In this document: in pieces, positions 15,887-54,087 of the stretch
Layout: each line of letters opens with the position of its first letter
Numbering within the stretch: position 1 is the first letter of the stretch
Assembly (NCBI GenBank): GCA_964467035.1
Contig: CAYXNX010000001.1
Coordinates: forward strand, 51,373-115,372
Length of the DNA: 64,000 nt
Direction of reading: 5' to 3'
DNA from: Candidatus Woesearchaeota archaeon
GTDB taxonomy: Archaea > Nanobdellota > Nanobdellia > Pacearchaeales > GW2011-AR1
Position numbers and translations under genes: made by a program
The notes under the pieces: generated by a model
The model's database searches: none
Told to the model about the DNA's origin: nothing
What the model saw: the letters and a program-made list of their open reading frames with translations, nothing else

Positions 15887-15947
15887 TAAAGATGTCAGAT
15901 AATTAGAGTATTTAAATCTTTTCTAAAAACCTGTATACACCTTTTGA

Positions 15948-16304: not shown

Positions 16305-16588
16305 TTTCTATCACTATTCCAAGCACTTATAACTTTTAAATCTTTTGAAACAACGATTTCAATTATCAATACTAAAGAGTATTTTCTACTCATTTTAAAC
16401 CAAAGTTTAAATCTATCTTCTGTTTTTCCTTTTTCAATCTTTTCCAATTTATTTATTTGTGATAAAAAACTTCTCACCATGCTTTCGCTTATAGGTCTTT
16501 CACCCATTTTTTTGTAAAAATGAGGGTCAAAACTTACATTGTTTTGATTAAGATTTTCAAGGAATTTTTTAACTTCTTTCATTTCCAT
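16280..16588 (-). CDS. DUF4258-family protein (toxin-like)
   Basis: FDPHFYKKMGERPISESMVRSFL resembles DUF4258 H..ER..R.I motif; overlaps DUF2283 gene. Confidence 0.45.
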   Translation of the reverse strand: MEMKEVKKFLENLNQNNVSFDPHFYKKMGERPISESMVRSFLSQINKLEKIEKGKTEDRFKLWFKMSRKYSLVLIIEIVVSKDLKVISAWNSDRKWQERLKQ

Positions 16589-20321: not shown

Positions 20322-20443
20322 GAGCCCATAGCTCAGTCAGGTTAGAGCGCTGGTCTTATATGGCTACAATTCATTAGGATTGTTGTTCTCTAAGGATGAC
20401 CTAAGAGAGCCAGAGGTCCCCGGTTCGAATCCGGGTGGGCTCA
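20322..20443 (+). tRNA. tRNA-Ile (anticodon UAU) with 47-nt intron at canonical 37/38 position (intron 20361..20407)
   Basis: exons fold as acceptor GAGCCCA/UGGGCUC, D stem GCUC/GAGC, anticodon stem CUGGU/GCCAG, loop CUUAUAA, T arm CCCGG-UUCGAAU-CCGGG; intron ends pair with the exon anticodon-loop region. Confidence 0.7.
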
Positions 20444-30673: not shown

Positions 30674-31359
30674 CCAGAAATCACTGACCCTCTAAAATTT
30701 TGACCTAAAAGCAACTTATCTAAATTATTCAAATTGTTTCCAACAATATAAGTTTTAATTTTTTCTTCTAAAATAATTTTAGCCGCATTTTGGTCTAAAA
30801 CAAAATGCTGTCCTGGGGAAAATTTAATAGAATTTGCCATTTTAAAAAAATCTTTCCAAGAAATTTCTTTTATAAATTTCGCACTTTTATACTTTTTTGG
30901 ATTTTTATCAAACAGCCCATCAACATTTGTAACATTAATAAATTCGCTTCCAAATTTTTTTGCAATCAAAGAAGCAGTTGAATCACTTGTTTGATTTGGC
31001 TTATACCCTAATGCACCGCAAAAAACAAAATTCTGTTTTTTCAAATATTTTTTAATTTCTTTCATTTTATGTGGAATTCCTTTTTCAGGGTCTAATTTAA
31101 AAAAATAACTCATAAATCTCGCATTAGTCCTTGTAACTGAAATACCTGCAAAACTCTGCAATTTATTACTTGCTTTAATCTCCCTTAATCCTTGAATATA
31201 CATTCTCGCCACCGAACCTCCCCCGCAAACCACCACAAACTTATAATTTTTAGAATGTTGTTTCAAAATTTTTTTAAACTTTTTAAGAAAACTTAAATTA
31301 ATTTTATTATCTTTAATAATCTGACTTCCCCCCAAACTTAAAACAATCACCTTTTTCAT
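30670..31359 (-). CDS. pyrH: uridylate (UMP) kinase, amino-acid kinase fold
   Basis: MKKVIVLSLGGS..VVVCGGGSVAR; 229 aa. Confidence 0.6.
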   Translation of the reverse strand: MKKVIVLSLGGSQIIKDNKINLSFLKKFKKILKQHSKNYKFVVVCGGGSVARMYIQGLREIKASNKLQSFAGISVTRTNARFMSYFFKLDPEKGIPHKMKEIKKYLKKQNFVFCGALGYKPNQTSDSTASLIAKKFGSEFINVTNVDGLFDKNPKKYKSAKFIKEISWKDFFKMANSIKFSPGQHFVLDQNAAKIILEEKIKTYIVGNNLNNLDKLLLGQNFRGSVISG

Positions 31360-31664
31360 AAATAAAAAAAGAAATTTATATATTTAAATTTACCTAACAG
31401 TAAACAACTTATCATCATCTACATCAAATACTCCCAATCTTACCCCTGCATCAATCCACCCATGAGCATAATTCAAAGCACCAAAACAATTAACATAATC
31501 TCCTTTTTCAAAAAAATGCCTTGCATCACTTAAATAATTCCCCGCCATCTCAATAATTTCCTTCGCCTCTTCTTTTTTAACAATATTTTCCTTCACAATT
31601 TCAAAAGCCCTTTCAGTAGTTTTAAAATATTTTTCAATCTTTTCTTTTGTTATTTTGGATTTCA
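31250..31664. repeat. 415-bp direct repeat copy 1 (pyrH 5' end plus intergenic plus 91-aa gene)
   Basis: near-identical to 32629..33043. Confidence 0.85.
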
Positions 31665-31665
31665 T
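31390..31665 (-). CDS. conserved small archaeal protein (91 aa), co-operonic with HEPN/MNT
   Basis: ATGA overlap with upstream HEPN gene; duplicate copy at 32768..33043. Confidence 0.45.
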   Translation of the reverse strand: MKSKITKEKIEKYFKTTERAFEIVKENIVKKEEAKEIIEMAGNYLSDARHFFEKGDYVNCFGALNYAHGWIDAGVRLGVFDVDDDKLFTVR

Positions 31666-32054
31666 AATTTCAGTTTTACAAATTTTTTCAATTTATTAAT
31701 TAACTCTTTCATCAAAAATTCATTCCTATCTAAATAATCTTTATCAATAAAAAATCCTTCATAAGATACCCTATTTCTTAAAACTCTAAGGTCATTAAAA
31801 AAATGATTATAACTCCTAAATTCCGAATATTTATCAACTAAATAGTCAAATAATTCTTTATGACTTAAAGTTTTGTAACCGTCAATCAACAAAACAGAGG
31901 TAGCTAATTCTTTTATAATTTCATAATAATCTGAAATAATTAAAGCAGACATTTTTTCCTTATTTTGAAGTTTAATTCTATCCTCAATTAAATTTATCAT
32001 TTTCAAAATACTTTTTGCTCTTTCTTTATCCGGAGTTATTTTTATCAAACTCAT
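31662..32054 (-). CDS. HEPN-domain protein (partner of MNT), R-N-x-x-x-Y variant motif
   Basis: RVLRNRVSYEG. Confidence 0.5.
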   Translation of the reverse strand: MSLIKITPDKERAKSILKMINLIEDRIKLQNKEKMSALIISDYYEIIKELATSVLLIDGYKTLSHKELFDYLVDKYSEFRSYNHFFNDLRVLRNRVSYEGFFIDKDYLDRNEFLMKELINKLKKFVKLKL

Positions 32055-32596
32055 TTTAATCTTACAAAACCTTTTAAAATAAATCCATTCAAAATATTGT
32101 TTTTCAATTCTTTATTTAATCTATTAATATCTGATTCAAATAAGATATTTAATTTTTTATTTAAAATATCCTCAAATTTTTTTATATTTAATTTCTTTGA
32201 TTTTGATTCTACAAAAATATCAACATCACTTTCATTTATGTCTTCACCTTTTGAATAACTTCCAAAAACAATAATAGAATTAGGCACACAGAAGTCATAT
32301 AAATAATCAACTAATTTAGATTCATACAAATTATGAATATTAAGAACTTTTTTCGCAAATAAAAATTCATTACTTTCTCTATTTGCAATATATCCAAAAA
32401 ATCTATCACCTTTCTTTTTTGATAAAATTTTTTGATTTTCTAAATTAATAAGATGTTTTTTAACAGAAGTCGGAGCTAAATTAATTTTTCGCGAAATTTC
32501 TTTAATAAAATGGATATTCAAAGGATCTTGAGAAAAAACACTAAATACTTTCCAAACACTTTGTTCAAATAAACATATTTGTTCCATAATAAACAT
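32051..32596 (-). CDS. minimal nucleotidyltransferase (MNT) with N-terminal wHTH
   Basis: IIVFGSYSKGEDINESDVDIFVE. Confidence 0.7.
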   Translation of the reverse strand: MFIMEQICLFEQSVWKVFSVFSQDPLNIHFIKEISRKINLAPTSVKKHLINLENQKILSKKKGDRFFGYIANRESNEFLFAKKVLNIHNLYESKLVDYLYDFCVPNSIIVFGSYSKGEDINESDVDIFVESKSKKLNIKKFEDILNKKLNILFESDINRLNKELKNNILNGFILKGFVRLK

Positions 32597-32628: not shown

Positions 32629-32738
32629 TAGAATGTTGTTTCAAAATTTTTTTAAACTTTTTAAGAAAACTTAAATTAATTTTATTATCTTTAATAATCT
32701 GACTTCCCCCCAAACTTAAAACAATCACCTTTTTCATA
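32629..32738 (-). pseudogene. duplicated 5' fragment of pyrH (first ~36 codons)
   Basis: inside 415-bp repeat copy 2. Confidence 0.6.
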
Positions 32739-32767
32739 AATAAAAAAAGAAATTTATATATTTAAAT

Positions 32768-33043
32768 TTACCTAACAGTAAACAACTTATCATCATCTAC
32801 ATCAAATACTCCCAATCTTACCCCTGCATCAATCCACCCATGAGCATAATTCAAAGCACCAAAACAATTAACATAATCTCCTTTTTCAAAAAAATGCCTT
32901 GCATCACTTAAATAATTCCCCGCCATCTCAATAATTTCCTTCGCCTCTTCTTTTTTAACAATATTTTCCTTCACAATTTCAAAAGCCCTTTCAGTAGTTT
33001 TAAAATATTTTTCAATCTTTTCTTTTGTTATTTTGGATTTCAA
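32768..33043 (-). CDS. second copy of the 91-aa small protein (ATG replaced by TTG)
   Basis: identical protein; start codon position reads TTG. Confidence 0.4.
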   Translation of the reverse strand: MKSKITKEKIEKYFKTTERAFEIVKENIVKKEEAKEIIEMAGNYLSDARHFFEKGDYVNCFGALNYAHGWIDAGVRLGVFDVDDDKLFTVR

Positions 33044-33699: not shown

Positions 33700-33819
33700 A
33701 CAAAATCTCAATAATTTCCTTCGCCCCTTCTTCTTTAACAATATTTTTCTTCACAATTCTCAAGATCTTTTCAGTAAGATTATAATATTTCTCTAATTTT
33801 TTGTTATTTTATCTTTCAT
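33700..33819 (-). pseudogene. degenerate third copy of the 91-aa gene 5' end (in-frame stop after 8 codons)
   Basis: similar to 31550..31665; ATGA overlap with HEPN gene. Confidence 0.35.
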
Positions 33820-34268
33820 ATTTGTTTATTAATAATCTTAATTAGTTTAGTATAAATTTGTTTTGTAAATTTAATAACTTTTTTAGCATATTCTACATCA
33901 ATTTTAGTTCCGTAATACAACATTCCATTTCTAAAAAATCTAATCTGATTCAAAAAACCAATTTCCTTATCTGTAAATTCTAAATTTTTTAAATAAGAAA
34001 CTTCGGCTTCATGAGCTTTAAAACCAGAAGCATTAAATCCATGAATAAACATTTCAGCCCTAATCAATTCCATTAAAATATCATAACATTTTTTAACATA
34101 ATCGTTAGCATTTAGCTCATTAATTCCTATTTTTTCAATTAATATAATCAAATAATTATAATTTTGTTGAGATTCATCTATTAAAAATTTTGCTCTTGAT
34201 TTATCTGAAAATTGTTTTTTAACAATTCCCAATTTAAGAAATTCCTCAAATTTTTTAACAGGTTTCAT
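33816..34268 (-). CDS. HEPN-domain protein
   Basis: FFRNGMLYYG. Confidence 0.5.
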   Translation of the reverse strand: MKPVKKFEEFLKLGIVKKQFSDKSRAKFLIDESQQNYNYLIILIEKIGINELNANDYVKKCYDILMELIRAEMFIHGFNASGFKAHEAEVSYLKNLEFTDKEIGFLNQIRFFRNGMLYYGTKIDVEYAKKVIKFTKQIYTKLIKIINKQI

Positions 34269-35015: not shown

Positions 35016-35261
35016 TTAACCGTAAACTTTCTTTCTAGTATCTATATCAAAAACAATCCACACTTCCTCTTTCAACTCTAATAAAACTCTATACCCTCCA
35101 ATTCTTAATCTAAAAGAACTTTTATAACCTTGTAATTTTTTTATATCAATTCTTTTACCATCTAATAAATCCTTTAATTTTACATTAATTAAATTTCTTA
35201 TATTAAAAGGTAATTTAAAATATTTCTTTTTTGCTTTTGAAGAGAACTCAATCTTTTTCAT
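35016..35261 (-). CDS. RelE/ParE-family toxin
   Basis: FRLRIGGYRVLLELKEEVWIVFDIDTRKKVYG. Confidence 0.6.
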   Translation of the reverse strand: MKKIEFSSKAKKKYFKLPFNIRNLINVKLKDLLDGKRIDIKKLQGYKSSFRLRIGGYRVLLELKEEVWIVFDIDTRKKVYG

Positions 35262-35481
35262 TTTCTTTCAAAATTTCTTCAAAGGAAATTGTCTCTCCTT
35301 TTTTAAATTCCTCTAAAGCTTCCTTTCTCAAACTCTCACTTTCTTTAGATAAAGGAAGAAAAGGCTCTATAAAATGCCATATAACTTCATCATAAGAATC
35401 CAGCAAAAGCTGTTCTTTAAGTTTAGTCATTGCCAAATGTGTTTCATCTTTTATTCTAAGTTGCATACAATATGAATACAT
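35248..35481 (-). CDS. cognate antitoxin (same family as 5267..5509)
   Basis: C-terminal EEFKKGETISFEEILKE. Confidence 0.5.
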   Translation of the reverse strand: MYSYCMQLRIKDETHLAMTKLKEQLLLDSYDEVIWHFIEPFLPLSKESESLRKEALEEFKKGETISFEEILKENEKD

Positions 35482-35901
35482 TTTGTATTTATAAATTTTT
35501 CTAAACTCAAAACTCTTTTTCTTAATTTCATAACTAACTTGAAGGAGAAAAATTTATGTGGCAGTTTTTCTATATCAACAAGCAGTAGAAAAAGCATTAA
35601 AGGTTTATTCTTATTTTGACACAAGGAAGTAGTTCCTCAACCTTATTCTTTAATTTATCTTGCCACCAATACTTCAATCCCTGAAAAATATTTTTCTTTT
35701 TTAAGAAAATTAACTCTTTCATCAAAAATTCATCCTACCCAAATAATCTTTATCAACAAAAAATCCTTTACAAGATATTCTATTTCTCAAACATTTAACT
35801 TTCTTCAGTATTTAAAACTCAAAACAGAAAGTTTTGATTTGCTGAATTTTTTATCAAGAAAATTTAGAATATTAAATAAAAATTTGAAAAAAACTTTATA
35901 A

Positions 35902-37391: not shown

Positions 37392-39599
37392 TTAACGTAC
37401 TTCCCATTTATTAAATCCAGCACTATCACTTAAATAAATTTTTCCCCCTTTATACACAAAAATTTGTTGCTCACCGAATCCTGTTCGGAACCAAAAATTA
37501 ACACCTCCTTTTAATTCCAAAGTGCAATTTCCATAAATACTTGTTTCAGGACCTTCAATTGAATAATTCTGAATCCCTTTATACCCTGTTTCAGGCACAC
37601 ACTTCCCATCTTCACACCCATAATTGCAAAAAATCTTTTTTGTATCTACATTTGCCCCATTACAATAAGCTTCTTCAACATACCAATCATCATTTCCAAA
37701 AGGATTATAAACACACTCATCCCAAACTGCTTCATTTGAATCCATTGCAACACTATAAATATATGAATCAAAATCATAATCCTTTACTTCATAATCAACA
37801 TTTAACAAATCACCACTTGTATTCATAAAATCATAATCAAAACACCCAATCTCTCCCAAACTTGTATCTTGAAAATCACTCCCATTAAAAGAATAAAAAC
37901 TTAAACCATCTGCTAAAAGAACCTTATCATGATAAGGACTATAATACCCGTGAGTAGGAGAAAAACTTGCTGTATAATTATCCTTAAACTTGTCTTCACT
38001 ATTAGTAGTTTCATTATTATGAACTATTTGCAACTTATTATCCTCCCACCAATGCAAATCTCCATACTCATTCCCAAAAGGACTTAAATAAGCTGTATCT
38101 ACTTTTTCAATAAATCCCGGATTATTTGTATCTTCAATATCATAAAATCTCCATAAATTACTAGTTGGATTAAAAACCAAAACCTTATCCCCTTTTTCAG
38201 ACCAAACATTAATCCTCCCCCCACCAACACTATCAAAACTATAAGCATTACTCACTTTTGCTGAAGGATTTGGGTCATCCCCATAATAAAAACTACAAGT
38301 CCTATTACACTCCCAATTATCCATCTCAGGGTCACAAGGACCTTCACCATGTTCTACAATTAATTTAATAGGGTAATAACTATCCTCTCCCATTTCTCCA
38401 GCAAACTCTAAATACCCTTCTTCTCCACCACTTCCCAAAAATTCATAACTTGACTTTAACCCGATTGCAAAAAAATCATCTTTCAAATTTGCCTTCAAAT
38501 CTTCTTCTGCATTACTTCCCAAAAAATACCTATCAACACTTGTCTCATTTGCTGACTCATTATAAAAAGAAGTAGAATTTTCAACATAAAAACCCAACCC
38601 ATTTGCCCCCTGCCCAATATCATTAAATAAATCTTCATTTCCTGTTTCATTATCTGGATAATTTGATTCATTTGTTATTTGAGTATCATTAAATCTTGAA
38701 ATAGAAACATTTATAGCACGAGTTCCACTTTGTCTTATTAACGGAACTGTAAGCTCAACACCTCTTATTTCCACAATATCATCAATAACTGAAGTATCAA
38801 ACTCTATAAAACCCCTATAAACAGAATTGTAAGAATTTTGCCCAGATTCTGTATTACCAATAGTTTTCAGATTTGTGCTACCTAAAAAAGAAGCACGAAG
38901 ATCTACTCTTTCAAAATCATAAACATCTCCATTTTGTTTAACAGTCCCTTTAAAAGGTCCATCAAAACAATTTACTACACAAGGAAGCCCATCAACTGGG
39001 TCAACCTCAATAGGATACTCAGCATTTTCCAACCATTCTTTATCAATCTCAACATTTAAATCAAGAAGTTTATTCCTTTCATCAAAATAAATTACATAAT
39101 TTCCATAAGAAACATCCCCATTATAATCAGTAGCAAAAGGCCTTGCAAGAGAATGAACAAACTGCTTATTAAAATCTCTTAAAACCAATTCCTCATTTTC
39201 AATACTTACTTTAACTCCTTTATGGATTTCATAAATTCCAAAATCAAAAACATTTTTTTCAGGAATATCATCAACCGGAATTATTGTTTTTTCAAGTTTT
39301 GGATTTGATAATTTTTCTAATTCAACAAATTGCTCTCCATCATAAAAAAATATATCTTCTGGAAAAATCTCAGTTCTATAACCTCCCCCACTTTTTCTAA
39401 ATGTTTTAGAGCTATATGTTCTCTTGGAAATAATTTCTTTTCCTTCTACTTCTTCAACACTTGAATTAACCTGCTCTTCAACAACATTTCCACTAATCTT
39501 ATTTTCTGTTTGAAAAAAATTCCCATCCCCCACCGCCCACGCCAAACCCCCAATTACCAAAACAACTATTCCAAAACTCATCCAAAATTTACTATTCAT
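37392..39599 (-). CDS. large secreted protein (735 aa) whose N-terminus is the intact copy of the R element
   Basis: MNSKFWMSFGIVVLVIGGLAWAVG signal. Confidence 0.5.
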   Translation of the reverse strand: MNSKFWMSFGIVVLVIGGLAWAVGDGNFFQTENKISGNVVEEQVNSSVEEVEGKEIISKRTYSSKTFRKSGGGYRTEIFPEDIFFYDGEQFVELEKLSNPKLEKTIIPVDDIPEKNVFDFGIYEIHKGVKVSIENEELVLRDFNKQFVHSLARPFATDYNGDVSYGNYVIYFDERNKLLDLNVEIDKEWLENAEYPIEVDPVDGLPCVVNCFDGPFKGTVKQNGDVYDFERVDLRASFLGSTNLKTIGNTESGQNSYNSVYRGFIEFDTSVIDDIVEIRGVELTVPLIRQSGTRAINVSISRFNDTQITNESNYPDNETGNEDLFNDIGQGANGLGFYVENSTSFYNESANETSVDRYFLGSNAEEDLKANLKDDFFAIGLKSSYEFLGSGGEEGYLEFAGEMGEDSYYPIKLIVEHGEGPCDPEMDNWECNRTCSFYYGDDPNPSAKVSNAYSFDSVGGGRINVWSEKGDKVLVFNPTSNLWRFYDIEDTNNPGFIEKVDTAYLSPFGNEYGDLHWWEDNKLQIVHNNETTNSEDKFKDNYTASFSPTHGYYSPYHDKVLLADGLSFYSFNGSDFQDTSLGEIGCFDYDFMNTSGDLLNVDYEVKDYDFDSYIYSVAMDSNEAVWDECVYNPFGNDDWYVEEAYCNGANVDTKKIFCNYGCEDGKCVPETGYKGIQNYSIEGPETSIYGNCTLELKGGVNFWFRTGFGEQQIFVYKGGKIYLSDSAGFNKWEVR

Positions 39600-40065
39600 T
39601 TAACATTACCTCAATTTCATCAACAATCTTCTTAGATTTATCTAACAAATTATTTAAAATTTCCTTATTAACTTCAGTTTTAATACCGTATTGAAATTCC
39701 TCTCTCAAAGTTTTTGCATCTTTTTCTATCATTTGACCAGTAGTTCTAATAAATGAAACAACTGATTTATCTAATTTTATCTCTCCAATTTCAATAAAAT
39801 GTTCAATTGCATTAATACTACACTCATAATTTTTGGATTCAAACCCTTTACTAAACAATATAATTAAAAAAGAATGATAAACTGCATAATACAATTGAGC
39901 AACTACCCAATCTTCAAATCCTCCCTCAATATTATAATTAGCCGCCTTAATATTATGTTTCGCTTTTTTAATATGTGCACTAGATAATTCTAAGTTTGGA
40001 ACTATCCTCTTCATTCTCTTCTCACTTTTCAAACACCAATTAAATTTTGATTCAATATCTTGCAT
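39592..40065 (-). CDS. HEPN-domain protein (PF05168-like)
   Basis: AQLYYAVYHSFLIILFSKG..SKNYECSINAIEHF. Confidence 0.45.
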   Translation of the reverse strand: MQDIESKFNWCLKSEKRMKRIVPNLELSSAHIKKAKHNIKAANYNIEGGFEDWVVAQLYYAVYHSFLIILFSKGFESKNYECSINAIEHFIEIGEIKLDKSVVSFIRTTGQMIEKDAKTLREEFQYGIKTEVNKEILNNLLDKSKKIVDEIEVMLNE

Positions 40066-40630
40066 TTTTTATCACCTCTAAAAATACTGATTCCCCTTTT
40101 ATCACAATTCCTTTTCTAATAATATCCAAAATAACTTCATTTTTAATTTTTACCTTATTGATTAAATCTTGTTCTTTCAAAATTAAAGGGACAATAGGCT
40201 TACTCCTAGATCTAGAAATACTTAAACAAAAATCATTAACTTGTTTAATTTTATTTGTCATAAATAAAACATCAACATCATTAAAACTTTTTTTATCTAA
40301 AATAGAACCAAACAAAATAATCAAATTTGCATTTTCAAATTCTTTAAGTTCTTCAAAATAAATTTTGGCAAATCCTTTTAAATTATTTCTTTCTTCAATA
40401 AGTAAAAATTCACAAATTTTAATTGTTTGATCTTCTTCAAAATTCAACCAATATTTTTTAACATTCCCAATATTTTCCGATAAAACAAATTTTTTCATTT
40501 CAAGATTTTTAAGAATTTTAAACGCACTTCCAACACTAATATTAAGTTTTCTAGAAATCTGATTAATACTATTATTTTCAAAATTTTTTAATAAATACAA
40601 GATTATTTTTTTGGTATTTCTTGAAATCAT
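40052..40630 (-). CDS. MNT nucleotidyltransferase with wHTH
   Basis: ILFGSILDKKSFNDVDVLFM. Confidence 0.6.
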   Translation of the reverse strand: MISRNTKKIILYLLKNFENNSINQISRKLNISVGSAFKILKNLEMKKFVLSENIGNVKKYWLNFEEDQTIKICEFLLIEERNNLKGFAKIYFEELKEFENANLIILFGSILDKKSFNDVDVLFMTNKIKQVNDFCLSISRSRSKPIVPLILKEQDLINKVKIKNEVILDIIRKGIVIKGESVFLEVIKNARY

Positions 40631-40676
40631 TTTCCTTTAAAGTGAATAATCATTCACAAATAATGAATGTTTATAA

Positions 40677-40849
40677 ATCTTTCCAAATCCCACGCACTCA
40701 CCCCCACCTCCCACACCAAACCCCAAATTACCAAAACCACAATTCCTAAACTCGTCCAAATTTACTATTCATTTCACCCCTCCAACCACCCACGCCCTCG
40801 CCGCTCCCAAAACAACTATTCCAATTAAAAATAAATTTTTACTTCGCAT
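40677..40849. repeat. two tandem degenerate R elements (orphan start + signal-peptide-coding fragments)
   Basis: reverse complement reads MNSKFGRV* and MRSKNLFLIGIVVLGAARAWVVGG. Confidence 0.6.
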
Positions 40850-41459
40850 TTTCAAAATCCTCTTTTTTTATTTTAATCCATCTTGAACAAACTTTTAGCA
40901 AATGATTAGATAAAGAAAAAGGACTACCTCTTTTTCTATCAAAATAAGTATAAAGAATAATTTCAGTACCTCTTTTATTTAAATCTTCTAAAATTGGACA
41001 AAAATCAGTATCAGAAGAAATCAAAACAATTTTTTTAATAAGAGGATAATCTTCTTTAATATGACTTAAATCTAAAGCCAACAAAATATCAACCCCTTTT
41101 TGTTTATACTCAAATCCATCATTTACTTTTAATCTTTGGACTCTTCCCTCTCTAAAAATAATTCCCTCTTTAATTAAAGAACTTCGAAAGGAATCATACT
41201 TAACTTTTCTTCTAATTTGTTCTCTAGTAGGATTATTTGACTGGAATGGCGGAGCAGTATATAAAAAAATTTTTTCAAAATCAAAATTTTCCCCCAAACA
41301 GATATTTTCTACAAAATTTTTAATTTTAAAAGGAATATAATACCCTTCACCCAAATGAATGTTTAATTTTGATAAAAACCCCAAATCTATAAAAAATAAA
41401 ACTTTATTATTCATTTTTAAAAAAGCCTCCAAAATTTTTTTCAGAAAAATAAAAAACAT
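40839..41459 (-). CDS. NYN/LabA-like (PIN-fold) nuclease domain protein
   Basis: IVLISSDTDFCPILEDLNKRGTEIILY. Confidence 0.45.
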   Translation of the reverse strand: MFFIFLKKILEAFLKMNNKVLFFIDLGFLSKLNIHLGEGYYIPFKIKNFVENICLGENFDFEKIFLYTAPPFQSNNPTREQIRRKVKYDSFRSSLIKEGIIFREGRVQRLKVNDGFEYKQKGVDILLALDLSHIKEDYPLIKKIVLISSDTDFCPILEDLNKRGTEIILYTYFDRKRGSPFSLSNHLLKVCSRWIKIKKEDFENAK

Positions 41460-41551
41460 CTAGTGACCTAAAAAGATCACTAGGGAACATTTCACTAACA
41501 AAAGAATGATCCAATTTATAAACTTTTCTATTAGTTTGGATTGTTGCACGA

Positions 41552-41806
41552 TTAGGTAACAATTTTAAATATTCTATATCTAGCATTATAGTCTTTTAAC
41601 AATTTTACTAGGTTTTTAGGTTTATTTTTCATTAAGATAACTCCTTTTGCTAATTTCTCAAAAGTGTTTTGTTTGAGAACACCTTCTCTAAAATAGGAAT
41701 AAGTCCCAAAATTAGAATAATCCTTATATCCATAGAGTTTTCTATTAAATTCAAGTCTTTTCTTTGGAGCTATAGAATCAAACCCATAAATTAACACGTA
41801 TTTCAT
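41552..41806 (-). CDS. hypothetical small protein (faint Cas2/VapD-like pattern)
   Basis: 84-aa ORF MKYVLIYGFDSIAPKKRLEFNRKLYGY. Confidence 0.25.
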   Translation of the reverse strand: MKYVLIYGFDSIAPKKRLEFNRKLYGYKDYSNFGTYSYFREGVLKQNTFEKLAKGVILMKNKPKNLVKLLKDYNARYRIFKIVT

Positions 41807-41859
41807 ACTGGTAACTATGAACAGTAATATTTAAATATTACTGTATACTAATACAGTAT

Positions 41860-42732
41860 ATGAATACAGTAAAAAGAGATTGGAAAACTTATAATGAAAA
41901 ACTAATAAAAAGAGGAGAGTTCTACTTAAATCCAAAATTCCTTGATACATGGTTAGATGAAATAAAGAAGATGAATGCTGGTAAGATAGGAGAACCTTAT
42001 CTTTATCCTGATTCTATGATAAAATTTCTAGCTGTTTTGCATGCAAAAAATTTTGATTATAGAGCTCTTGAAGGTATTATGAGGGTTTTTTCAGGAATGA
42101 ATTTTAATTTTCCAGTAATAAGTTATACTCAAATTTGTCGTCGAGTTAATAATCTTGACCTTTCATTTGATATTAAGGAAAAAGATTTAGTTGTTGCAAT
42201 TGATGGTTCTGGAGAAAAAGTCAGTAATAGAGGAGAATGGATAAGACAAAAGTGGAAGGTGAGAAGAGGTTGGATAAAAGTAGTGATAATGGGAACCCCT
42301 GAAGGAAAGATAGTTGATATAAGAGTTGGAAATGAAAAGCTTGATGAAAGAAAAGCTGCTAGAGGTATGTTAAGAGATAATAATTCTAAAATCAGTAAGG
42401 CAATTATGGATGGCCTGCATGATTGCAGAGATACATTTAATGTTTGTGAAAAAAGAAAAATAGAGCCAGTGATAAAAATTAGAAAGAATGCGAGAACAAG
42501 ATCAAAAGGATCTCCAAAAAGAAGAGAAGCTGTTGTTGAATATCAAAGATTAGGACATAATGATTGGGTTAGAAAAAAAGGATATGGAATGAGGTGGCCT
42601 GCTTCAGAGGGTATTTTTTCTGCTGATAAAAGAATATTTGGGGAGAGTGTTAGAGCAACTAAAAAAAGAAACATGTATCAGGAAGTCAAACTAAAATTTT
42701 GGGTATACAATAAACTTCAGAAAATAGGGTAA
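41860..42732 (+). CDS. putative DDE-type transposase (IS5/ISH-like)
   Basis: VVAIDGSGEKV candidate first Asp; 290 aa, basic; only plus-strand gene in minus-strand array. Confidence 0.35.
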   Translation: MNTVKRDWKTYNEKLIKRGEFYLNPKFLDTWLDEIKKMNAGKIGEPYLYPDSMIKFLAVLHAKNFDYRALEGIMRVFSGMNFNFPVISYTQICRRVNNLDLSFDIKEKDLVVAIDGSGEKVSNRGEWIRQKWKVRRGWIKVVIMGTPEGKIVDIRVGNEKLDERKAARGMLRDNNSKISKAIMDGLHDCRDTFNVCEKRKIEPVIKIRKNARTRSKGSPKRREAVVEYQRLGHNDWVRKKGYGMRWPASEGIFSADKRIFGESVRATKKRNMYQEVKLKFWVYNKLQKIG

Positions 42733-42808
42733 AAAAAGGTTAGATAGCGAGAGCCTTGTTTAAATTAAGAATCATGCAACAGAGCATATTAGTTAAAATC
42801 AAAGTCTT

Positions 42809-42901
42809 ATTCATTAAAAAATACCTCCTTGAACCATCCCTCCCAAACCCCAAATTACCAAAACCACAGTTCCAATTAAAAATAAATTTTACTATTTCCC
42901 A
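42809..42901. repeat. R element (orphan)
   Basis: reverse complement ATGGGAAATAGTAAAATTTATTTTTAATTGG.. overlaps RelE stop. Confidence 0.55.
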
Positions 42902-43155
42902 TAAACTTTACCTCTTTTATCCATTTTAAAAATAATAATTTTTTTATCTTTATAACTTATTCTATATAAAACCCTATAATCTCCAATTCTAATCCTAAAA
43001 CAATTATGCTTTCCAATTATGGATTTAGAATCAGAAGGAACAGAAGTTTTATTAAAAACTTGATTTAACTTACCCAAAATTCTTTTAGAAATATTTTTAT
43101 CTTGTTTTTCCAAAAATTTTATAGGTTGAGAATCATAAACTAAAGAAAAATTCAT
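42892..43155 (-). CDS. RelE/ParE-family toxin
   Basis: FRIRIGDYRVLYRISYKDKKIIIFKMDKRGKVYGK. Confidence 0.6.
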   Translation of the reverse strand: MNFSLVYDSQPIKFLEKQDKNISKRILGKLNQVFNKTSVPSDSKSIIGKHNCFRIRIGDYRVLYRISYKDKKIIIFKMDKRGKVYGK

Positions 43156-43355
43156 AAGCTTAATTCTTTTTCAATATCTTCATTAGAAATCAACAAACCT
43201 TTTTTTTCGTTTTCATAACTTTCTTCAAGCAAATTTTCTTCTTCAGTTGTTAAAAAAGAATCATCCAAAGTTTCCTGAATATTTAAAACAAGATTTTTTA
43301 AATTATTCAAATCATTATGTATTGTTTCCAAGGTTATATTTTCCATATTAAACAA
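43152..43355 (-). CDS. cognate antitoxin
   Basis: C-terminal ENEKKGLLISNEDIEKELSL. Confidence 0.5.
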   Translation of the reverse strand: MFNMENITLETIHNDLNNLKNLVLNIQETLDDSFLTTEEENLLEESYENEKKGLLISNEDIEKELSL

Positions 43356-43357
43356 AA

Positions 43358-43543
43358 TTAATGAAGACTTAAAAAACTTTCCCTCCTTTCAGTTTTATAT
43401 CTTTTAGATTCTCGTGCAAATCCCCCAACCACCGCCCACACCAAACCCCTCATTACCCTTTCTAAATCTCCCACCTCCCACGCCAAACCCCCAATTACCA
43501 AAACTCCAGTTCCAATTAAAAATAAATTTTTACTATTCACCAT
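43358..43543 (-). pseudogene. orphan R element with 61-codon ORF (signal-peptide fragment, duplicated GLAWxVG motif)
   Basis: MVNSKNLFLIGTGVLVIGGLAWEVGDLERVMRGLVWAVVGGFAR. Confidence 0.45.
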
Positions 43544-44019
43544 CTTTTTTCAAACCCCTCTCTAAAATCCTGAATATTTTTATTAGTTAATTTTGAAACA
43601 AAATCCAAAATATAATCAAAAAAAGATTCTGCGCTTTTTATAGTTTCTCCCACTTCATCTTTAGAAATTTCAAAATCTACATAATACTGTTTATCAACCC
43701 TTTCATACTTTGCTTTCCTAATCTCAGAATTATCTAAATTAAACAAATCTTTCAATAAAATTATTGAAGCCATATGATTCTCAGACTTTATTCCAACTTT
43801 AAAAAACAAAGAAATTAAAATATTATACATAGAATAATAAGCAAGAACAACAGATTCTTCCAATTTATTTTCTCTAAAAAGAATTTTTGCAGAACTAAGA
43901 TTACTCTCAGATTTAAGAATATAAGAATCTTTCAAATTTTCACTAGGATCAACAAGTTCTAATTTTCCTTGTTTTTTTAATTTAGTCAAAAAATCCATTT
44001 TTAGCGTAAAATTCTTCAA
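43537..44019 (-). CDS. HEPN-domain protein (PF05168-like)
   Basis: VVLAYYSMYNILISLFFKVGIKSENHMASIILL. Confidence 0.45.
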   Translation of the reverse strand: MKNFTLKMDFLTKLKKQGKLELVDPSENLKDSYILKSESNLSSAKILFRENKLEESVVLAYYSMYNILISLFFKVGIKSENHMASIILLKDLFNLDNSEIRKAKYERVDKQYYVDFEISKDEVGETIKSAESFFDYILDFVSKLTNKNIQDFREGFEKRW

Positions 44020-44540
44020 ATCCTTTTAAGATAACATGATTCTTTTCAATTTCTTTTATCAAAATATGCTTTGAGTCATATTTACCCATTTTCAAACTCA
44101 ATCTTGAATCAATTTTCAATAAATCTTCTTTTAATTCTTTACTTGAATTTTCAATATAAATATCAATGTCACTATTTTTTTTTGCAATTTCCTTAGAATA
44201 AGAACCAAATAAAATAGCTAATTTAATCCGTTTATCTAATTGAATTCTTTCAATTAATCTTCTTAAAGAAGGATAATTTTTAATAACACGATTCAATTTG
44301 TAAACTTCAGACATTAATATATAATTTCTCGCTTCTATACTTTTTTTAAGAAAAAAAACTTTATTCCTCCCTTTTTCTTCAAAATCTACAACATTCTCTT
44401 TCATTAATTCATTCATTCTCCTTACCACAACCATATGGTTAGTTTTTAATAACTTAGCAATTTCCCTAATATGATTTTTTTCTTTGATTAATTGAATAAT
44501 TACTTCCAATTTAAAATCTTTATGTTCCATATGTAACACT
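43982..44540 (-). CDS. MNT nucleotidyltransferase with wHTH
   Basis: AILFGSYSKEIAKKNSDIDIYIE; track start is GTG, ATG 9 nt later. Confidence 0.6.
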
Positions 44541-44555
44541 TATGTTCCATTATTT

Positions 44556-44655
44556 ATAAATCTTTCCAAATCCCACGCACCCACCCCCACCGCCCACGCC
44601 AAACCCCCAATTACAAAACAACTATTCCAATTAAAAATAAATTTTTATTATTCAT
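44556..44655. repeat. R element (orphan; stop after 14 codons)
   Basis: begins tttataaatctttccaaatcccacgcac as at 40668; reverse complement MNNKNLFLIGIVVL*. Confidence 0.6.
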
Positions 44656-45065
44656 TTTAATTTATCTTCAATCAATTTAGACAATTTTTTAATTACCAAT
44701 ACAATTTCTTTTTCATAATTTTGAAGAAAAGTTTCATTCACTTTTTTCCCATAATATACAATTCCATTTCTTGATTTTCTTAAAGTATCTATAAGTAATA
44801 ATTGATTGTCATTTAATAAATCATAATTTGTAGAGAAGTATTCTAACAATTTTTTATGACTTAGAGTCTTAAATCCATCTATGTACATAATACTTGTCAA
44901 AAAACCTAGAACAATTTCATAATATTCTTCAACAATTTTATATGGTTTATCTCTAGGCAAAATTTTAATTATATCCAATCTCTCTTTAGAAATTTCGAAC
45001 AATTCTCTAGACCTAATTAAATCTTTCTCTATTTTAAAAATTTCTTCATCCATAAATACCTCCAT
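44652..45065 (-). CDS. HEPN-domain protein
   Basis: RKSRNGIVYYGKKV. Confidence 0.5.
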   Translation of the reverse strand: MEVFMDEEIFKIEKDLIRSRELFEISKERLDIIKILPRDKPYKIVEEYYEIVLGFLTSIMYIDGFKTLSHKKLLEYFSTNYDLLNDNQLLLIDTLRKSRNGIVYYGKKVNETFLQNYEKEIVLVIKKLSKLIEDKLK

Positions 45066-45573
45066 ACAAAGTCAATCCATTTAAAATTTTATTTTTTAAA
45101 GGTTTATTCAATTTATTTAAGTTATTTACATTAATAAAATTTATCTCTCTACCTAAATTATCTTCAAATTTAGAAACATCTAACTTTTTTTTAATATTGG
45201 ATAAAATAAAAATATCAATGTCACTTAACTCTACATCATTGCCTGTTGAATAAGAACCAAAAAGTATTATTGCCTTAGGATTTAAGTTAAATTTAATGGA
45301 TTCAACCAAATCATAGAGAGAATAAAGATTATACAATTTTTTGTAAAAAGTAAATCTATCATTATCTCTATGCGCAACATAACCATCAAAAGGTTTAGAT
45401 TTTTTAATTTTTATCAAACCTTCTTTCAATAAGTCTTGTATATTTTTTCTAACAGAAGTATGAGCCAAATTTATTTTTTTACTAATCTCTCTAATAAAAT
45501 GAATATTTGTTGGTTCTTTAAAAAAAACTTCTAAAACTTTTAGGTAGCTACTTTTTTGTATCATTATAAACAT
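45046..45573 (-). CDS. MNT nucleotidyltransferase with wHTH
   Basis: IILFGSYSTGNDVELSDIDIFIL. Confidence 0.7.
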   Translation of the reverse strand: MFIMIQKSSYLKVLEVFFKEPTNIHFIREISKKINLAHTSVRKNIQDLLKEGLIKIKKSKPFDGYVAHRDNDRFTFYKKLYNLYSLYDLVESIKFNLNPKAIILFGSYSTGNDVELSDIDIFILSNIKKKLDVSKFEDNLGREINFINVNNLNKLNKPLKNKILNGLTLYGGIYG

Positions 45574-45689
45574 AAATATACTAATTAGTATATAAAACTA
45601 TCGGTCAAACTCTGCTTTAACTAATTTAAAAAAATCATCATCTGCAAAAATCAAAGTATCATTAATTAAAAAATACCTCCTTAAAAAAA

Positions 45690-45860
45690 TCCCCCACACC
45701 AAAACCCCCATTACCCTTTCCAAATTCCCAACCACCCCCACACCAAATCCCTCATTACCCTTTCCAAATTCCCAACCACCCCCACACCAAATCCCTCATT
45801 ACCCTTTCCAAATCCCCACCGCCCACGCCAAACCCCCCATTACCAAAACCAAAATCCTAA
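45690..45860. repeat. tandem array (3 units, about 48 nt period) of the G/W-rich core of the R element
   Basis: cccaaccacccccacaccaaatccctcattaccctttccaaat repeated. Confidence 0.65.
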
Positions 45861-45869
45861 AATAATTAT

Positions 45870-48722
45870 TTACTCTCCAACTTTAATAACTAATCTTTCA
45901 TTTGAATCATCCCAATAAATCTGCCCATCCCCCATATGCTGAGTCCCAGTAACATTTGTATCTCCATCAACATGCAAATCTTGTTGGGGACTATCTGTTC
46001 CTATTCCCACATTTCCTGAATCATCAATTCTCATTGACTCACTAGCAGAACCTGTATAAAACGCTAATTCATTAAACCCATCAGAAGGACCAAAAACAAT
46101 TCCAGCTCTTTTACTTCCATCTAAATGATTCCAAACACCCTTATCATCTCCTCTATCTACAAAAATATCTCCACCACTTACATCCAGTTTAGCTTGAGGA
46201 CTATCTGTTCCTATTCCTACTTTACCATCTGATTTTATTACCATTCTTGTATCATCTATTGAAACCTCATTGTCATCAGCAGTTCCGTCATTCAAGAAAT
46301 ACAAATCCCCCCTACCGTATGTTCCAGTCCTAGCAAAAGCGATTCCTCCCTTTCCATAATCTGCTGTTGTCGCAGTAAATACAATTCCTGTAGCTGTGTC
46401 ATAACCTGTTGCATAATTTTTTAGTCTTAAGGGATATGTCAATAAACCATCTGATGTGTCAACTATTTCTAATTTTGTACTTGGACTATCTGTTCCTATT
46501 CCTACATTACCTCCATTAAAATAGGAACTTGTACCTGAGCCACTAGTGAGTTTAATCTTTGTTTCACCATTTTGTGACAATTCTAAATATCCTCTATTAT
46601 TATCATTTGAGTATAATTTAGCATAGGTTTCTCCCGTAGACTCATCACTTAAAGTTAAACCATCATTTGCACCTGTTTGAATTTCTAATTTTTCATTAGG
46701 ACTATCTGTTCCTATCCCTACTTTACCCCCATTTGTAACTGTAAATAAAGAATCTGTTTCAGCAGAATCCTTCTTAACTGAAAATAAACCTGTTCCAGAG
46801 TTACTTTCATCCATAACCATATTAATATTTTTAGTAGAATATAAAGTCATATCTTGATCTGAATCAGTAACATCTAATTTATTAACCCCCGATGCTACAC
46901 CTGTTGGAAAAGAAATATCTTGAAAAGTAACTGAAGAAGAAGTTTTAACATCCTGATTCATTCCATAAAGCTCATTTGCTCCTTGCCCTGTATTAACAGT
47001 TGAAAAATTTACATCATCAGTTGTATTCAAAGATTGGTCAAATATATTTCCTGTTATAAATCCTTGATTATCTACATAATTAATTGCTGGTTCTGTTTGA
47101 TTATACAACCATTTCTTAACCCCTTCCCCTTCAACAAAAACATTGCTTCCAAAATAACCATTTCTCCATTGCCAAGTTTCATTACCTACATCAAAAGTAT
47201 TATCCCAATCAATAGGCAATAAACTCCCATTTATATCTAAATTATTAACTCCTAACGAGGTTATGTTATAAGTATAAAGTGCCTGAGCAAAAACCTCTCC
47301 ATCAATTACAGAAACTCCTCCGTTTTGCCAACCCTCATCAAAATTAACCTCTCCGGTAATTTCCATCCCTTCACTTACATTTAAACTATTAAACACAACA
47401 TCATCAGTTGTATTCAAAGATTGGTCAAATATATTTTCTGTTATAGCTCTTGTATCTATTGTGTTGTTTAGTAAAGTTTCATTGAAGTCTAAAGTAGAAC
47501 CATCAAAGGAGTTGTAATTATCTCCTGTTGTCCAATTAAAAACTCCAAAAAAATCCCCATAAAAAGCAGGTGAAGAAATATTATAAATAGCATTAAAATA
47601 ATCTGCTTTTGCTTCTCCTGCAATATCTAAAGCATCTCCAGTCATCTCTCCCTCAACTTTAACATCATCACTAAAATAAAATCTACTATTAGAATAATCA
47701 TATCCTAAAACATTAGTATCTATAAGATAATTTTCAGATTCTGAATTATTTGTATGGAAAAACATTATTGTAGGGTCATCCTCACTTGATACATCACTTA
47801 TTAAAGTTGCAATTTCTCCCAAATTAATAACACTATCTGTACCTCCAAAAGAACCTACATCATTTGAATATGGGTTTAATGTAGGAATATCTAACATCGA
47901 ACCAGGAGAAAAAGCACTATAGTTTAGTGTAAATGTTGAAAGGTTTATATTTGTATTTTCATCTCCTATAAAGACACTTTGATTAGTTGTTGAACCTCTT
48001 TCTGTTACTGATTGTAGTGTGTCAGTTTCTGAAGAAGCTGACCTATCATCTATTGTGGAATTTAATTCTGTTTCGTTTAAATAAATATAATTGGAATCAT
48101 TATAAAGATAAATTCCTCCACCTGATTTTTCTGTGTTAGTATCTTCAGCATCTATATTTCCACATTCCCAATTTCCAGAAGTAGTATTATAAATAGCAAC
48201 TTCTTCATCAGAACAACTAAGTCCTCCAATATATTCGTCAGAAGTATAAAGAACATTTGAACAACTTCCATCTTGTGAACAATTTGTATCTGCTTCAAAG
48301 TTATCCCTTGCATCAATAGTCCTATTTAATTCTGTTTCATTGAAATCTAAATCTATATCATTATCATTTGAATCTAAAGAAATTGAAAGATATTTAGAAA
48401 GTGTTGTTGCTATATTTCTGAATTGCAATGTTGTTGAACTTTTCCCACCAAATACTCCAATACCATCTGTTCCTATATTACTTCCATCATTTGCTTCTCC
48501 ACTTCCCCCGCTCTGATTCACATCATCCCAGTTACCAATACAATCATTCCCAATACAATATCCGCTATCAGAACTTATATTTCCTAAAACTGTCAAATTC
48601 CCTGTATTTCCATAAATAATTGCTAAATCAGTTCCTGATTTATTTTGAAACTTATAATCTCCTGCACTAACAAAACCAACCATACAAATTATCAACAAAA
48701 TCAAAACCAGTTTTTTATTCAT
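45870..48722 (-). CDS. giant secreted protein (950 aa) with repeated VGIGTDSPxxKLxV motifs
   Basis: signal peptide; four GIGTDSP repeats in C-terminal third. Confidence 0.5.
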   Translation of the reverse strand: MNKKLVLILLIICMVGFVSAGDYKFQNKSGTDLAIIYGNTGNLTVLGNISSDSGYCIGNDCIGNWDDVNQSGGSGEANDGSNIGTDGIGVFGGKSSTTLQFRNIATTLSKYLSISLDSNDNDIDLDFNETELNRTIDARDNFEADTNCSQDGSCSNVLYTSDEYIGGLSCSDEEVAIYNTTSGNWECGNIDAEDTNTEKSGGGIYLYNDSNYIYLNETELNSTIDDRSASSETDTLQSVTERGSTTNQSVFIGDENTNINLSTFTLNYSAFSPGSMLDIPTLNPYSNDVGSFGGTDSVINLGEIATLISDVSSEDDPTIMFFHTNNSESENYLIDTNVLGYDYSNSRFYFSDDVKVEGEMTGDALDIAGEAKADYFNAIYNISSPAFYGDFFGVFNWTTGDNYNSFDGSTLDFNETLLNNTIDTRAITENIFDQSLNTTDDVVFNSLNVSEGMEITGEVNFDEGWQNGGVSVIDGEVFAQALYTYNITSLGVNNLDINGSLLPIDWDNTFDVGNETWQWRNGYFGSNVFVEGEGVKKWLYNQTEPAINYVDNQGFITGNIFDQSLNTTDDVNFSTVNTGQGANELYGMNQDVKTSSSVTFQDISFPTGVASGVNKLDVTDSDQDMTLYSTKNINMVMDESNSGTGLFSVKKDSAETDSLFTVTNGGKVGIGTDSPNEKLEIQTGANDGLTLSDESTGETYAKLYSNDNNRGYLELSQNGETKIKLTSGSGTSSYFNGGNVGIGTDSPSTKLEIVDTSDGLLTYPLRLKNYATGYDTATGIVFTATTADYGKGGIAFARTGTYGRGDLYFLNDGTADDNEVSIDDTRMVIKSDGKVGIGTDSPQAKLDVSGGDIFVDRGDDKGVWNHLDGSKRAGIVFGPSDGFNELAFYTGSASESMRIDDSGNVGIGTDSPQQDLHVDGDTNVTGTQHMGDGQIYWDDSNERLVIKVGE

Positions 48723-53703: not shown

Positions 53704-54087
53704 TCACTTAAACAATAATTCAATTTTTTTTGGATTTCTTTTTATATCTTTAACAATACTTGCAGGCCCAATAATTGTCATAGATGCAGTATCTCCAACC
53801 AAAATTTTTGCAATTCCTTTAGAAAACCGCGCTCCAAAACCTTCTTCACTTTCACTTCCAATAACTGCTAATTCAATTCCTTTAAAATTTTGAACATGCC
53901 CAATCATTGCCATAGTATCCTCAATTAACCTTGTCTCTTCTTCAGGTTTTAAACGCCCTTGCAAAACAATAACTTTATTTTTCAAAACAATATTTAATAA
54001 TTTCTTAATTCTCTCCCCAGCGCTTAAATGCCTTATTTCTGAATATGGTAAAAACTCAATTGTTAACCCCTTTATTTTTTTAACCAT
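53704..54087 (-). CDS. hypothetical protein encoded downstream of small GTPase (possible regulatory partner)
   Basis: 127-aa ORF. Confidence 0.3.
   Translation of the reverse strand: MVKKIKGLTIEFLPYSEIRHLSAGERIKKLLNIVLKNKVIVLQGRLKPEEETRLIEDTMAMIGHVQNFKGIELAVIGSESEEGFGARFSKGIAKILVGDTASMTIIGPASIVKDIKRNPKKIELLFK

Follow-up and report, generated by a model that had tools for sequence, protein, structure and literature searches.

Why should the opening codons of a surface-protein gene be found again and again, detached from the gene itself, between neighboring toxin and antitoxin genes? This question is raised by a stretch of 64,000 nucleotides (hereafter the window) from Candidatus Woesearchaeota archaeon (assembly GCA_964467035.1, contig CAYXNX010000001.1, positions 51,373 to 115,372), in which the gene of a 735-aa putative surface protein (37392-39599, minus strand) begins with a short element, here called R, that recurs as orphan copies between compact toxin-antitoxin (TA) and defence cassettes. 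The genomes of DPANN archaea are tiny and streamlined, and the acquisition and reshuffling of defence and addiction modules in them are poorly understood. A preliminary description of the sequence had offered three explanations for the copies, namely attC-like recombination sites for cassette capture, remnants of surface-protein 5' ends into which cassettes were inserted, or silent cassettes for switching the N-terminus of the surface protein. Judging from the family and its boundaries, the decay of the copies, the lack of attC features, the recurrence of one geometry at other sites, the concerted evolution, and the agreement of independent assemblies, we consider it probable that the R elements are leftover partial direct duplicates of the first ~85-100 nt of the resident 735-aa gene, produced by serial, homology-driven accretion of cassettes and subsequently shaped by gene conversion and decay.

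A multiple alignment, which had been proposed for defining boundaries and any inverted repeats, resolves the element into one family of seven copies, i.e., the true gene start (copy A) and six orphans (B2, B1, C, D, E, and F; Table 1), restricted within the window to 39.5-45.9 kb. The 23-nt core GGTAATTGGGGGTTTGGCGTGGG occurs seven times at up to three mismatches, always on the minus strand (39536-45844; 0 expected from 100 shuffles), and the 5' half AGTAAAAATTTATTTTTAATTGGAA occurs three times against 0 expected; a 28-nt tail found in two of the copies is non-random to the same degree. Read on the minus strand, the layout runs from the head ATGAATAGTAAAAATTTATTTTTAATTGGAATAGTTGTTTTG through a G-rich core GTAATTGGGGGTTTGGCGTGGGCGGTGGGGG to ATTTGGAAAG. 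The alignment agrees with the first reading of the locus in that the recurring element is the true N-terminus of the 735-aa protein starting at 39599, with the copies at the coordinates originally listed. The three copies assigned to 45690-45860, however, are a 44-nt tandem array of 3.6 units without a start codon, which follows the degenerate head of copy F and consists of the G-rich core (3' half) and ATTTGGAAAG. Similarly, the string with which several copies were thought to start does lie upstream of MNT genes in B2 and E (28/28 nt identical), but it is present in these two copies only and forms the end, not the start, of the element on the coding (minus) strand.

The boundaries of the copies follow a simple rule. 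Copies begin at the stop codon of the preceding gene, which is a HEPN gene (39592, 43537, and 44652), the NYN gene (40839), the ParE gene (42892), or the gene of a 950-aa protein (45870), and the stop codon of B1 in turn overlaps the ATG of B2. At their far end lies the transcription factor B recognition element and TATA box (BRE/TATA) of the next cassette (B2 and E); copy D first continues into further units, which precede a leader and promoter, and C and F have a second module in common at this end. More than 10 junctions share this one geometry, in which the stop codon of a cassette is followed by a duplicated gene start and then by the next element, most often the next promoter. In copy B2, the head passes through the G-rich core and the extension GTGAGTGCGTGGG into GGAAAG-ATTTATAAA, ~40 nt upstream of the MNT ATG at 40630, and copy E shows the same succession before the MNT gene 43982-44539. 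At the end of both copies, this motif is found ~25-45 nt ahead of the MNT start codons, and from established knowledge of archaeal promoters we take it to be a BRE/TATA with a presumable promoter role. The head starts with ATGAATAGTAAA, which holds TGA, TAG, and TAA in the other two frames and therefore terminates any gene reading into the head. Within four of the heads (B1, C, D, and E), 12-20 nt past the upstream stop codon, lies TTTATTTTT, whose T5 tract resembles an archaeal oligo-T terminator and may serve as one.

The preliminary description had seen truncated open reading frames (ORFs), some of them prematurely stopped, and translation bears this out: four of the six orphans (B2, C, E, and F) no longer have an intact ORF, owing to a frameshift, an early stop, or the loss of the ATG, whereas D (61 aa) and B1 (26 aa) still do. 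Beyond codon ~25, the sequence is different in every copy. These observations bear on the idea that the copies are functional genes of small membrane peptides, which would be translationally coupled to the toxin as a third component of each cassette. The overlap of the ATG with the upstream stop codon in every ATG-retaining copy (F has none) would fit such coupling, as would the intact ORFs of D, B1, and a 41-aa orphan of a related lineage (L011, see below), of which D and the L011 orphan are orthologous. Against it stand the broken ORFs of most copies and the divergence beyond codon ~25, and a profile search of the head peptide against 5.8 billion proteins matched the ORF of D only, a weak negative, as the 735-aa protein itself was missed as well. 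Gene conversion from the intact gene can, moreover, hold ORFs open without selection, and we give this explanation little credence.

The genes between the copies are compact TA and defence cassettes, comprising three pairs of a winged helix-turn-helix (wHTH)-MNT gene and a HEPN gene, one antitoxin-ParE pair, and one NYN-domain gene. Pfam matches (MNT/NTP_transf_2 with HEPN; ParE) place this content among the type II/VII TA systems, with the qualification that HEPN 44652-45065 and HEPN 31662-32054 have no Pfam match and were called as the positional partners of an MNT gene. The spacer behind copy C has received a secondary insertion, an IS5-like element.

A related lineage has the same architecture, made from its own gene start. 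Three samples yielded JGI contigs (L011, L012, and L013) with a full-length 711-aa orthologue (P0002) of the 735-aa protein, 43% identical and with a collinear N-terminus. Window and L011 share the gene order of a HEPN gene (of the 44652 type), ParD-ParE, the surface gene, and the gene of a TSP3-repeat protein. In L011, the 41-aa ORF (MVNKTLIIFAIGILLVISLALFVSAGAF...) overlaps the HEPN stop codon; behind it lie the ParD leader, ParD, and ParE, whose stop codon is in turn overlapped by the start of the 711-aa gene (MKNKTLIIFGIGILLVISLALFVNAGAF...). This orphan and the gene start of its own genome are 96% identical over 78 nt, both AT-rich and without the G-rich core. Copy D and the ParD leader behind it (43356-43399, 94% identical to the L011 leader over 36 nt) are collinear with the L011 orphan and leader, sharing AAAAAAGATGGTGAA at the left junction, TTTGCA, TATAAAA, and then GAAAGGAGGnAAAGTTTTTTAAGTCTT, which indicates one ancestral insertion for both. 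L011 passes directly from the orthologous HEPN gene to a single head and ParDE, and directly from ParE to the surface gene, whereas in the window one additional cassette separates E from D, and several separate C from A, with the breakpoints at the copies. Such presence/absence polymorphism with breakpoints in the repeats is the pattern sought for accretive integration. The second module after C and F may be a relic of an AT-rich gene start of the L011 type (MNKTLI..); it resembles the head in L011 only weakly (P = 0.01-0.04 with one query, not significant with the other).

The degree of identity within and between the two genomes adds a further aspect. Copies D and A are 86% identical, and the L011 orphan and L011 gene start 96%, whereas the orthologous heads reach only 63-70% between the genomes, where ParDE is 81-82% identical. 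Copies are thus more alike within a genome than orthologous copies are between genomes, and they evolve in concert, exchanging sequence inside each genome.

The same geometry is found at a second locus of the window, where the genes encode a DUF357 protein and an amino-acid kinase (Table 1). Two identical 414-nt segments flank an MNT-HEPN cassette there, each starting inside the DUF357 start codon that overlaps an upstream TGA (A, then TGA, in one copy; T, then TGA, in the other), and a third, older relic of the DUF357 start abuts the BRE/TATA of the next cassette. The L011 orthologue of the enclosed cassette is homologous from ~36 nt before the MNT ATG (at the TATA box) to the HEPN stop codon, which suggests that the transposable unit is the bare transcription unit. 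The phenomenon is thus not specific to signal peptides or surface proteins. With this geometry in the related lineage as well as at an unrelated gene pair, and with breakpoints at the copies, the second of the original explanations, that of surface-protein 5' ends into which cassettes were inserted, is supported and can be generalized.

Table 1. Copies of the R element, cassettes, and related features of the window; positions are those of the window, except where L011 is named
Feature	Position	Strand	Description
Copy A	39515-39599	-	genuine 5' end of the 735-aa gene; start codon and signal-anchor MNSKFWMSFGIVVLVIGGLAWAVGDGNFF; ATG overlaps stop of HEPN 39592-40065
Copy B2	40670-40772	-	A-type orphan head, stop after 8 codons
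Copy B1	40770-40849	-	orphan head, 26-aa ORF; ATG overlaps stop of NYN gene 40839-41459
Copy C	42830-42901	-	orphan head, stop after 8 codons, truncated G-rich core; ATG overlaps ParE stop (42892)
Copy D	43400-43543	-	orphan head and two G-rich units, intact 61-aa ORF; ATG overlaps stop of HEPN 43537-44019
Copy E	44553-44655	-	orphan head, 1-nt deletion leading to stop after 14 codons; ATGA overlap with stop of HEPN 44652-45065
Copy F	45683-45872	-	degenerate head without ATG; begins at stop of 950-aa gene (45870)
Second module after C	42787-42829	-	AAGGAGGTATTTTTTAAT.AAT.A.ACTTTGATTTT, common to C and F; cut by IS5-like element
Second module after F	45612-45682	-	Shine-Dalgarno-like AAGGAGGT and degenerate AT-rich head-like stretch, then promoter of MNT 45046-45573
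G-rich core oligo			GGGCGGTGGGGGTGGGTGCGTGGG, sequence considered for G-quadruplex formation
Cassette 1	39592-40630	-	wHTH-MNT 40052-40630 and HEPN 39592-40065
Cassette 2	40839-41586	-	NYN-domain gene 40839-41459 and short upstream ORF
IS5-like insertion sequence	~41540-42786	+	DDE transposase 41860-42732; boundaries by eye, approximate
Cassette 3	42892-43355	-	antitoxin 43152-43355 and ParE toxin 42892-43155; orthologous to L011 341-795 (81-82% nt identity)
Cassette 4	43537-44539	-	wHTH-MNT 43982-44539 and HEPN 43537-44019; no counterpart at the matching L011 position
Cassette 5	44652-45573	-	wHTH-MNT 45046-45573 and HEPN-like 44652-45065; HEPN orthologous to L011 3-203
Proximal 414-nt copy	31251-31664	-	DUF357 gene start to codon ~37 of amino-acid-kinase gene; 100% identical to 32629-33042
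MNT-HEPN cassette	31662-32596	-	between the 414-nt repeats; orthologous to L011 5999-6936, in a different context there
Distal 414-nt copy	32629-33042	-	DUF357 with TTG start and 43-aa kinase stub; ends 5 nt before MNT BRE/TATA
Third, older DUF357-start relic	33705-33829	-	81% identical, stop after 8 codons; overlaps stop of HEPN 33816-34268

A perfect 414-nt repeat could resemble a mis-join, and the repeats beside a surface-protein gene recall antigenic-variation loci; the copies might accordingly be taken for an assembly artefact or for silent 5' cassettes that switch the N-terminus of the surface protein. Contigs of an independent assembly (Logan, SRR11308339), however, match the window exactly from 32658 to 31635, across both cassette junctions of the 414-nt duplication, and from 44613 to 40812, covering the core of E, D, ParDE, C, the insertion sequence, and the NYN gene up to B1, and they end only inside repeated 30-mers. 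The junction of the distal 414-nt copy is independently confirmed by contig L017. Together with the L011 architecture in three samples and the divergence of the copies, which cannot be assembly duplicates, this speaks strongly against an artefact. As for the switching of N-termini, the copies span the signal-anchor segment only, so that nothing else would be varied, and most are broken. Both ideas are very improbable, and the third of the original explanations is not supported.

Beyond the window, the exact pattern GGTAATNNGGGNTTTGGYGTGGG gave only single chance matches in unrelated genomes of higher GC content when genome, metagenome, and viral contig collections (the source genome not among them) were searched, and the L011 unit pattern had no match in the viral contig collection. 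The preliminary description had named the absence of the element elsewhere, combined with a local duplication of one gene start, as the outcome that would refute its view, and as far as the data reach this is essentially what was found. On more distant, Pacearchaeota-like contigs (L014 and L015), MNT/HepT cassettes precede the homologous surface gene, which marks this intergenic position as a long-standing cassette hotspot. A 41-aa ORF before the L014 homologue was inspected as a candidate head copy and rejected.

For a genome of 29% GC, the 3' half of the head stands out by its high G content, whereas the orthologous L011 codons are AT-rich. This half is also the amplified part, present as two units in D and 3.6 in F, and since its 44-nt period is not a multiple of 3, the amplified part is non-coding. 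A strict G-quadruplex (G4) motif (four tracts of at least three G, loops up to 7 nt) is found in copy E only (44572-44595), while six of the nine G4-like motifs of the window with loops up to 12 nt fall within R copies; folding predicts two-tetrad G4s only, which are significant against shuffles for A, B, and E only. L011 contains C-rich tandem arrays with a period of 42-44 nt (2-4 units) in five spacers bordering TA cassettes (4459-4547, 5770-5935, 6977-7082, 7792-7959, and 9648-9798). These arrays, also present in L012 and L013, keep one orientation whatever the orientation of the cassettes, and L012, otherwise 99.9% identical to L011, has one unit fewer in the last of them. The common period, composition, and position suggest a link between the units of the window and those of L011, with homology not demonstrable, as nhmmer found nothing and Smith-Waterman comparison against dinucleotide shuffles gave P = 0.42, 0.04, and 0.58.

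The direction might also be reversed, i.e., the cassette boundaries would be marked by a native, G-rich intergenic tandem repeat, one unit of which became codons 15-29 of the 735-aa gene by conversion or capture. In favor of such an origin are the anomalous usage of codons 15-25 (see below), the 44-nt units that lack a head in F and D, and the cassette-boundary arrays of L011, which agree in period and composition and vary in copy number between samples. The head of copy A, however, aligns collinearly with the AT-rich L011 N-terminus (FGI..L..LA..V..G.F, in identical positions), which makes the segment orthologous coding sequence. Moreover, the 5' half of the orphans (ATG..TTTTGG) clearly derives from a gene start, and the similarity of the units between the genomes is not significant. 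It is quite unlikely that the repeat came first.

The first of the original explanations requires the features of an attC site. On either strand of B2, D, E, and F, no hairpin is predicted (DNA minimum free energy (MFE) 0 to -3.3 kcal/mol, z +1.4 to -0.8; a z of -2.0 is reached by a single strand of the F array, at an MFE of only -1.4 kcal/mol). No R copy contains an R''/R' pair (RYYYAAC ... GTTRRRY, 50-160 nt apart; 30.5-46 kb searched), and the three candidate pairs per strand found in this region all lie within the MNT coding region 45178-45292. Among the scanned ORFs of the window (nearly all of at least 90 aa), there is no Pfam match to Phage_integrase or tyrosine recombinases, the sole mobility gene being the IS5-like DDE transposase; Rfam covariance models gave no match at E <=1 in 30-50 kb. 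Nor were inverted repeats found in or around the copies, as would be expected with target-site duplications for a miniature inverted-repeat transposable element or insertion sequence. Archaeal attC sites retain the single-stranded fold that defines attC (PMC9668308). As R has neither this fold nor attC cores, and no integrase was found among the scanned ORFs, the interpretation as attC-like sites fails.

A broader form of this idea holds that R is the cassette-boundary site of some site-specific recombinase with an integron-like function, comparable to clusters of attC sites lacking integrases (CALINs), with the crossover in the G-rich core and the 735-aa gene start as the terminal site. The array indeed consists of small TA and defence cassettes in one orientation, separated by a repeat whose 5' and 3' halves occur in recombinant combinations and whose core is 94-97% identical in A, D, E, and F, and L011 has its arrays in constant orientation in five TA-cassette spacers. 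Besides the missing hairpins and core pairs, and the lack of an integrase among the scanned ORFs, several observations nevertheless speak against it: the cassettes have promoters of their own, the G-rich core is entirely absent from the L011 duplicates, the DUF357 locus has the same geometry with an unrelated 414-nt sequence, and homology between the units of window and L011 is not demonstrable. We regard a site-specific system as unlikely.

How could duplication of the gene start by homology-driven accretion have proceeded? Self-promoted TA and defence cassettes (MNT-HEPN, ParDE, and NYN, each from its BRE/TATA to its stop codon) would have recombined in successively at the start codon of the gene, each insertion leaving the start intact on the gene and a truncated copy of it upstream. 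Neither a circular intermediate nor an empty site nor a recombinase was seen in the data, so that the route of insertion is one that we infer. The simplest process with this outcome would be the single-crossover (Campbell-type) integration of a circularized cassette carrying a copy of the gene start, with circles arising by recombination between two flanking copies of an existing array; a template-switch duplication-insertion would have an equivalent outcome. Older copies would then be displaced upstream and lose their coding capacity, and would persist as spacers of the array, which supply the stop codon of the preceding toxin gene and carry a T5 terminator-like tract and, in B2 and E, the putative BRE/TATA of the next cassette. 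Gene conversion would keep the copies alike, and unequal exchange or slippage might have amplified the G-rich 3' half to 44-nt tandem units.

Besides the unseen intermediates, a number of observations weigh against the accretion of gene-start duplicates. The G-rich core is rich in rare codons (codons 15-25 include GCG, 7%, twice; GTG, 10%; and GGG, 24%; P ~3.5e-4), and it is 94-97% identical among A, D, E, and F, above what passive decay predicts; both features suggest that the DNA itself may be subject to selection or to a bias. Together with the G4-like motifs and the tandem arrays, they lend some weight to the site-specific or G4-initiated site and to the invasion of the gene start by a repeat, unlikely as we hold both to be. 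The tails of B2 and E are shared through the TATA box despite the unrelated cassettes behind them, which implies that at least some copies were copied from one another and not from the gene. Intact ORFs have been kept in both D and its L011 counterpart, and the junction of the 414-nt duplication has no clear microhomology. Finally, the MNT-HEPN/HepT cassettes of the P0027 and P0010 lineages and of L014 and L015 have no flanking direct repeats, so that the process would be restricted to a lineage.

Among known systems, arrays of integrative and conjugative elements (ICEs), cis-mobilizable elements (CIMEs), and genomic islands accrete at att sites in the ends of tRNA and protein genes, as SXT does at the 5' end of prfC. 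Successive insertions at a gene end, an array separated by direct repeats, an intact gene, and the newest element next to it are features in common with R. Here, however, no integrase was found, no short att core is shared between the lineages, the repeats measure up to 414 nt, and the inserts, which target the start codon of a protein-coding gene in a DPANN archaeon, are TA operons of 0.5-1 kb. Campbell-type single crossover and homology-facilitated illegitimate recombination leave an insert flanked by direct repeats of the shared homology, with one gene copy truncated and one complete. Flanking copies of a gene end in the same orientation, one truncated and one complete, are found at A-F, at the 414-nt repeat, and at the 78-nt repeat of L011, and the perfect 414-nt repeat and the 96% identical L011 repeat fit this pattern; different from the plain Campbell type are the serial use of the same site, the ensuing concerted evolution, and a circular donor that was not observed. 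In Neisseria, a G4-forming element at pilE is required for pilin antigenic variation. Like pilE, the 735-aa gene has a G-rich, G4-prone tract at the 5' side of a surface-protein gene that converts with nearby partial copies; unlike pilE, the canonical motif is confined to copy E, the predictions are two-tetrad, and the mature protein is not diversified. Integron arrays and CALINs, including archaeal ones (PMC9668308), also consist of small, TA-rich cassettes with a repeat after each, and the higher identity of repeats within (86-96%) than between genomes (63-70%) is likewise of the integron/CALIN type. R differs from them in lacking the hairpin, the R''/R' cores, and IntI, in having self-promoted cassettes, and in that the repeat copies the start of a coding gene.

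The known kinds are thus accretive gene-end integration and Campbell-type duplication, and what is new here is that they occur without an integrase, at start codons, with TA cassettes, and in a DPANN archaeon. Junctions at two unrelated target genes and in two lineages point to integrase-free, homology-driven stacking of cassettes at gene starts, which also explains orphan "mini-ORFs" in annotations. If the G-rich core stimulates recombination, the locus would represent the archaeal counterpart of those bacterial surface-protein loci where a G4 initiates gene conversion. A more far-reaching version, which we find doubtful, is that the duplicate of the gene start serves as an "att" site that codes for protein, providing portable homology for integrase-free cassette capture, excision of circles, and exchange between strains, homogenized by gene conversion and initiated at the G4-prone core, whose 44-nt units would possibly be related to the 42-44-nt arrays bordering TA cassettes in L011. 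If true, DPANN archaea would possess a cassette platform that resembles integrons and operates by homologous recombination.

Several minor observations were made along the way. The IS5-like element has possible terminal repeats (TGTTGCAYGATT) and splits a short ORF that continues toward the NYN gene. The region 30.6-45.9 kb as a whole forms an island of TA cassettes around two surface-protein genes; downstream of the TSP3-repeat surface gene, it contains a small TA-like pair (77 aa and 81 aa, 35016-35481) and, within 35500-35900, a HEPN pseudogene fragment (35724-35798) that is 80% identical to 31715-31789. On contigs of a Nanoarchaeota-like lineage (P0027; L018-L027), an MNT-HEPN pair lies between strain-variable large surface or S-layer genes (upstream) and conserved genes (downstream), an arrangement suggesting that variable surface-protein regions are often bordered by TA cassettes. 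On L028/L029 (2230-4898), a reverse-transcriptase ORF (RVT_1) and a 610-aa ORF are located directly upstream of an MNT-HEPN pair, and this locus may be a diversity-generating retroelement.

The window has a GC content of ~29%, with most genes on the minus strand, and encodes the archaeal proteins eIF2-gamma, ribosomal protein S6e, and OapB; among named organisms, its proteins have their closest relatives in metagenome-assembled genomes of Candidatus Pacearchaeota and Nanoarchaeota. A type I restriction-modification operon occupies 9971-19329 (HsdM 9971-11431, HsdS 12593-13717, and HsdR 16579-19329), and an ORF with a Shedu SduA_C nuclease domain (11434-12591) is wedged between hsdM and hsdS. 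A third tRNA gene (20322-20443, plus strand, 122 nt), probably intron-containing, was detected by Rfam and missed by ARAGORN. The ORF 23568-24749 (plus strand) combines a C-type lectin domain with a C-rich stretch (23626-23708). Diversity-generating retroelements of DPANN archaea typically target folds of this type, but the window revealed no reverse transcriptase. Finally, the homologue of OapB, an origin-associated protein (53704-54087), adjoins a helicase gene (51661-53637) that is syntenic with L014, and a replication origin may lie near these two genes.

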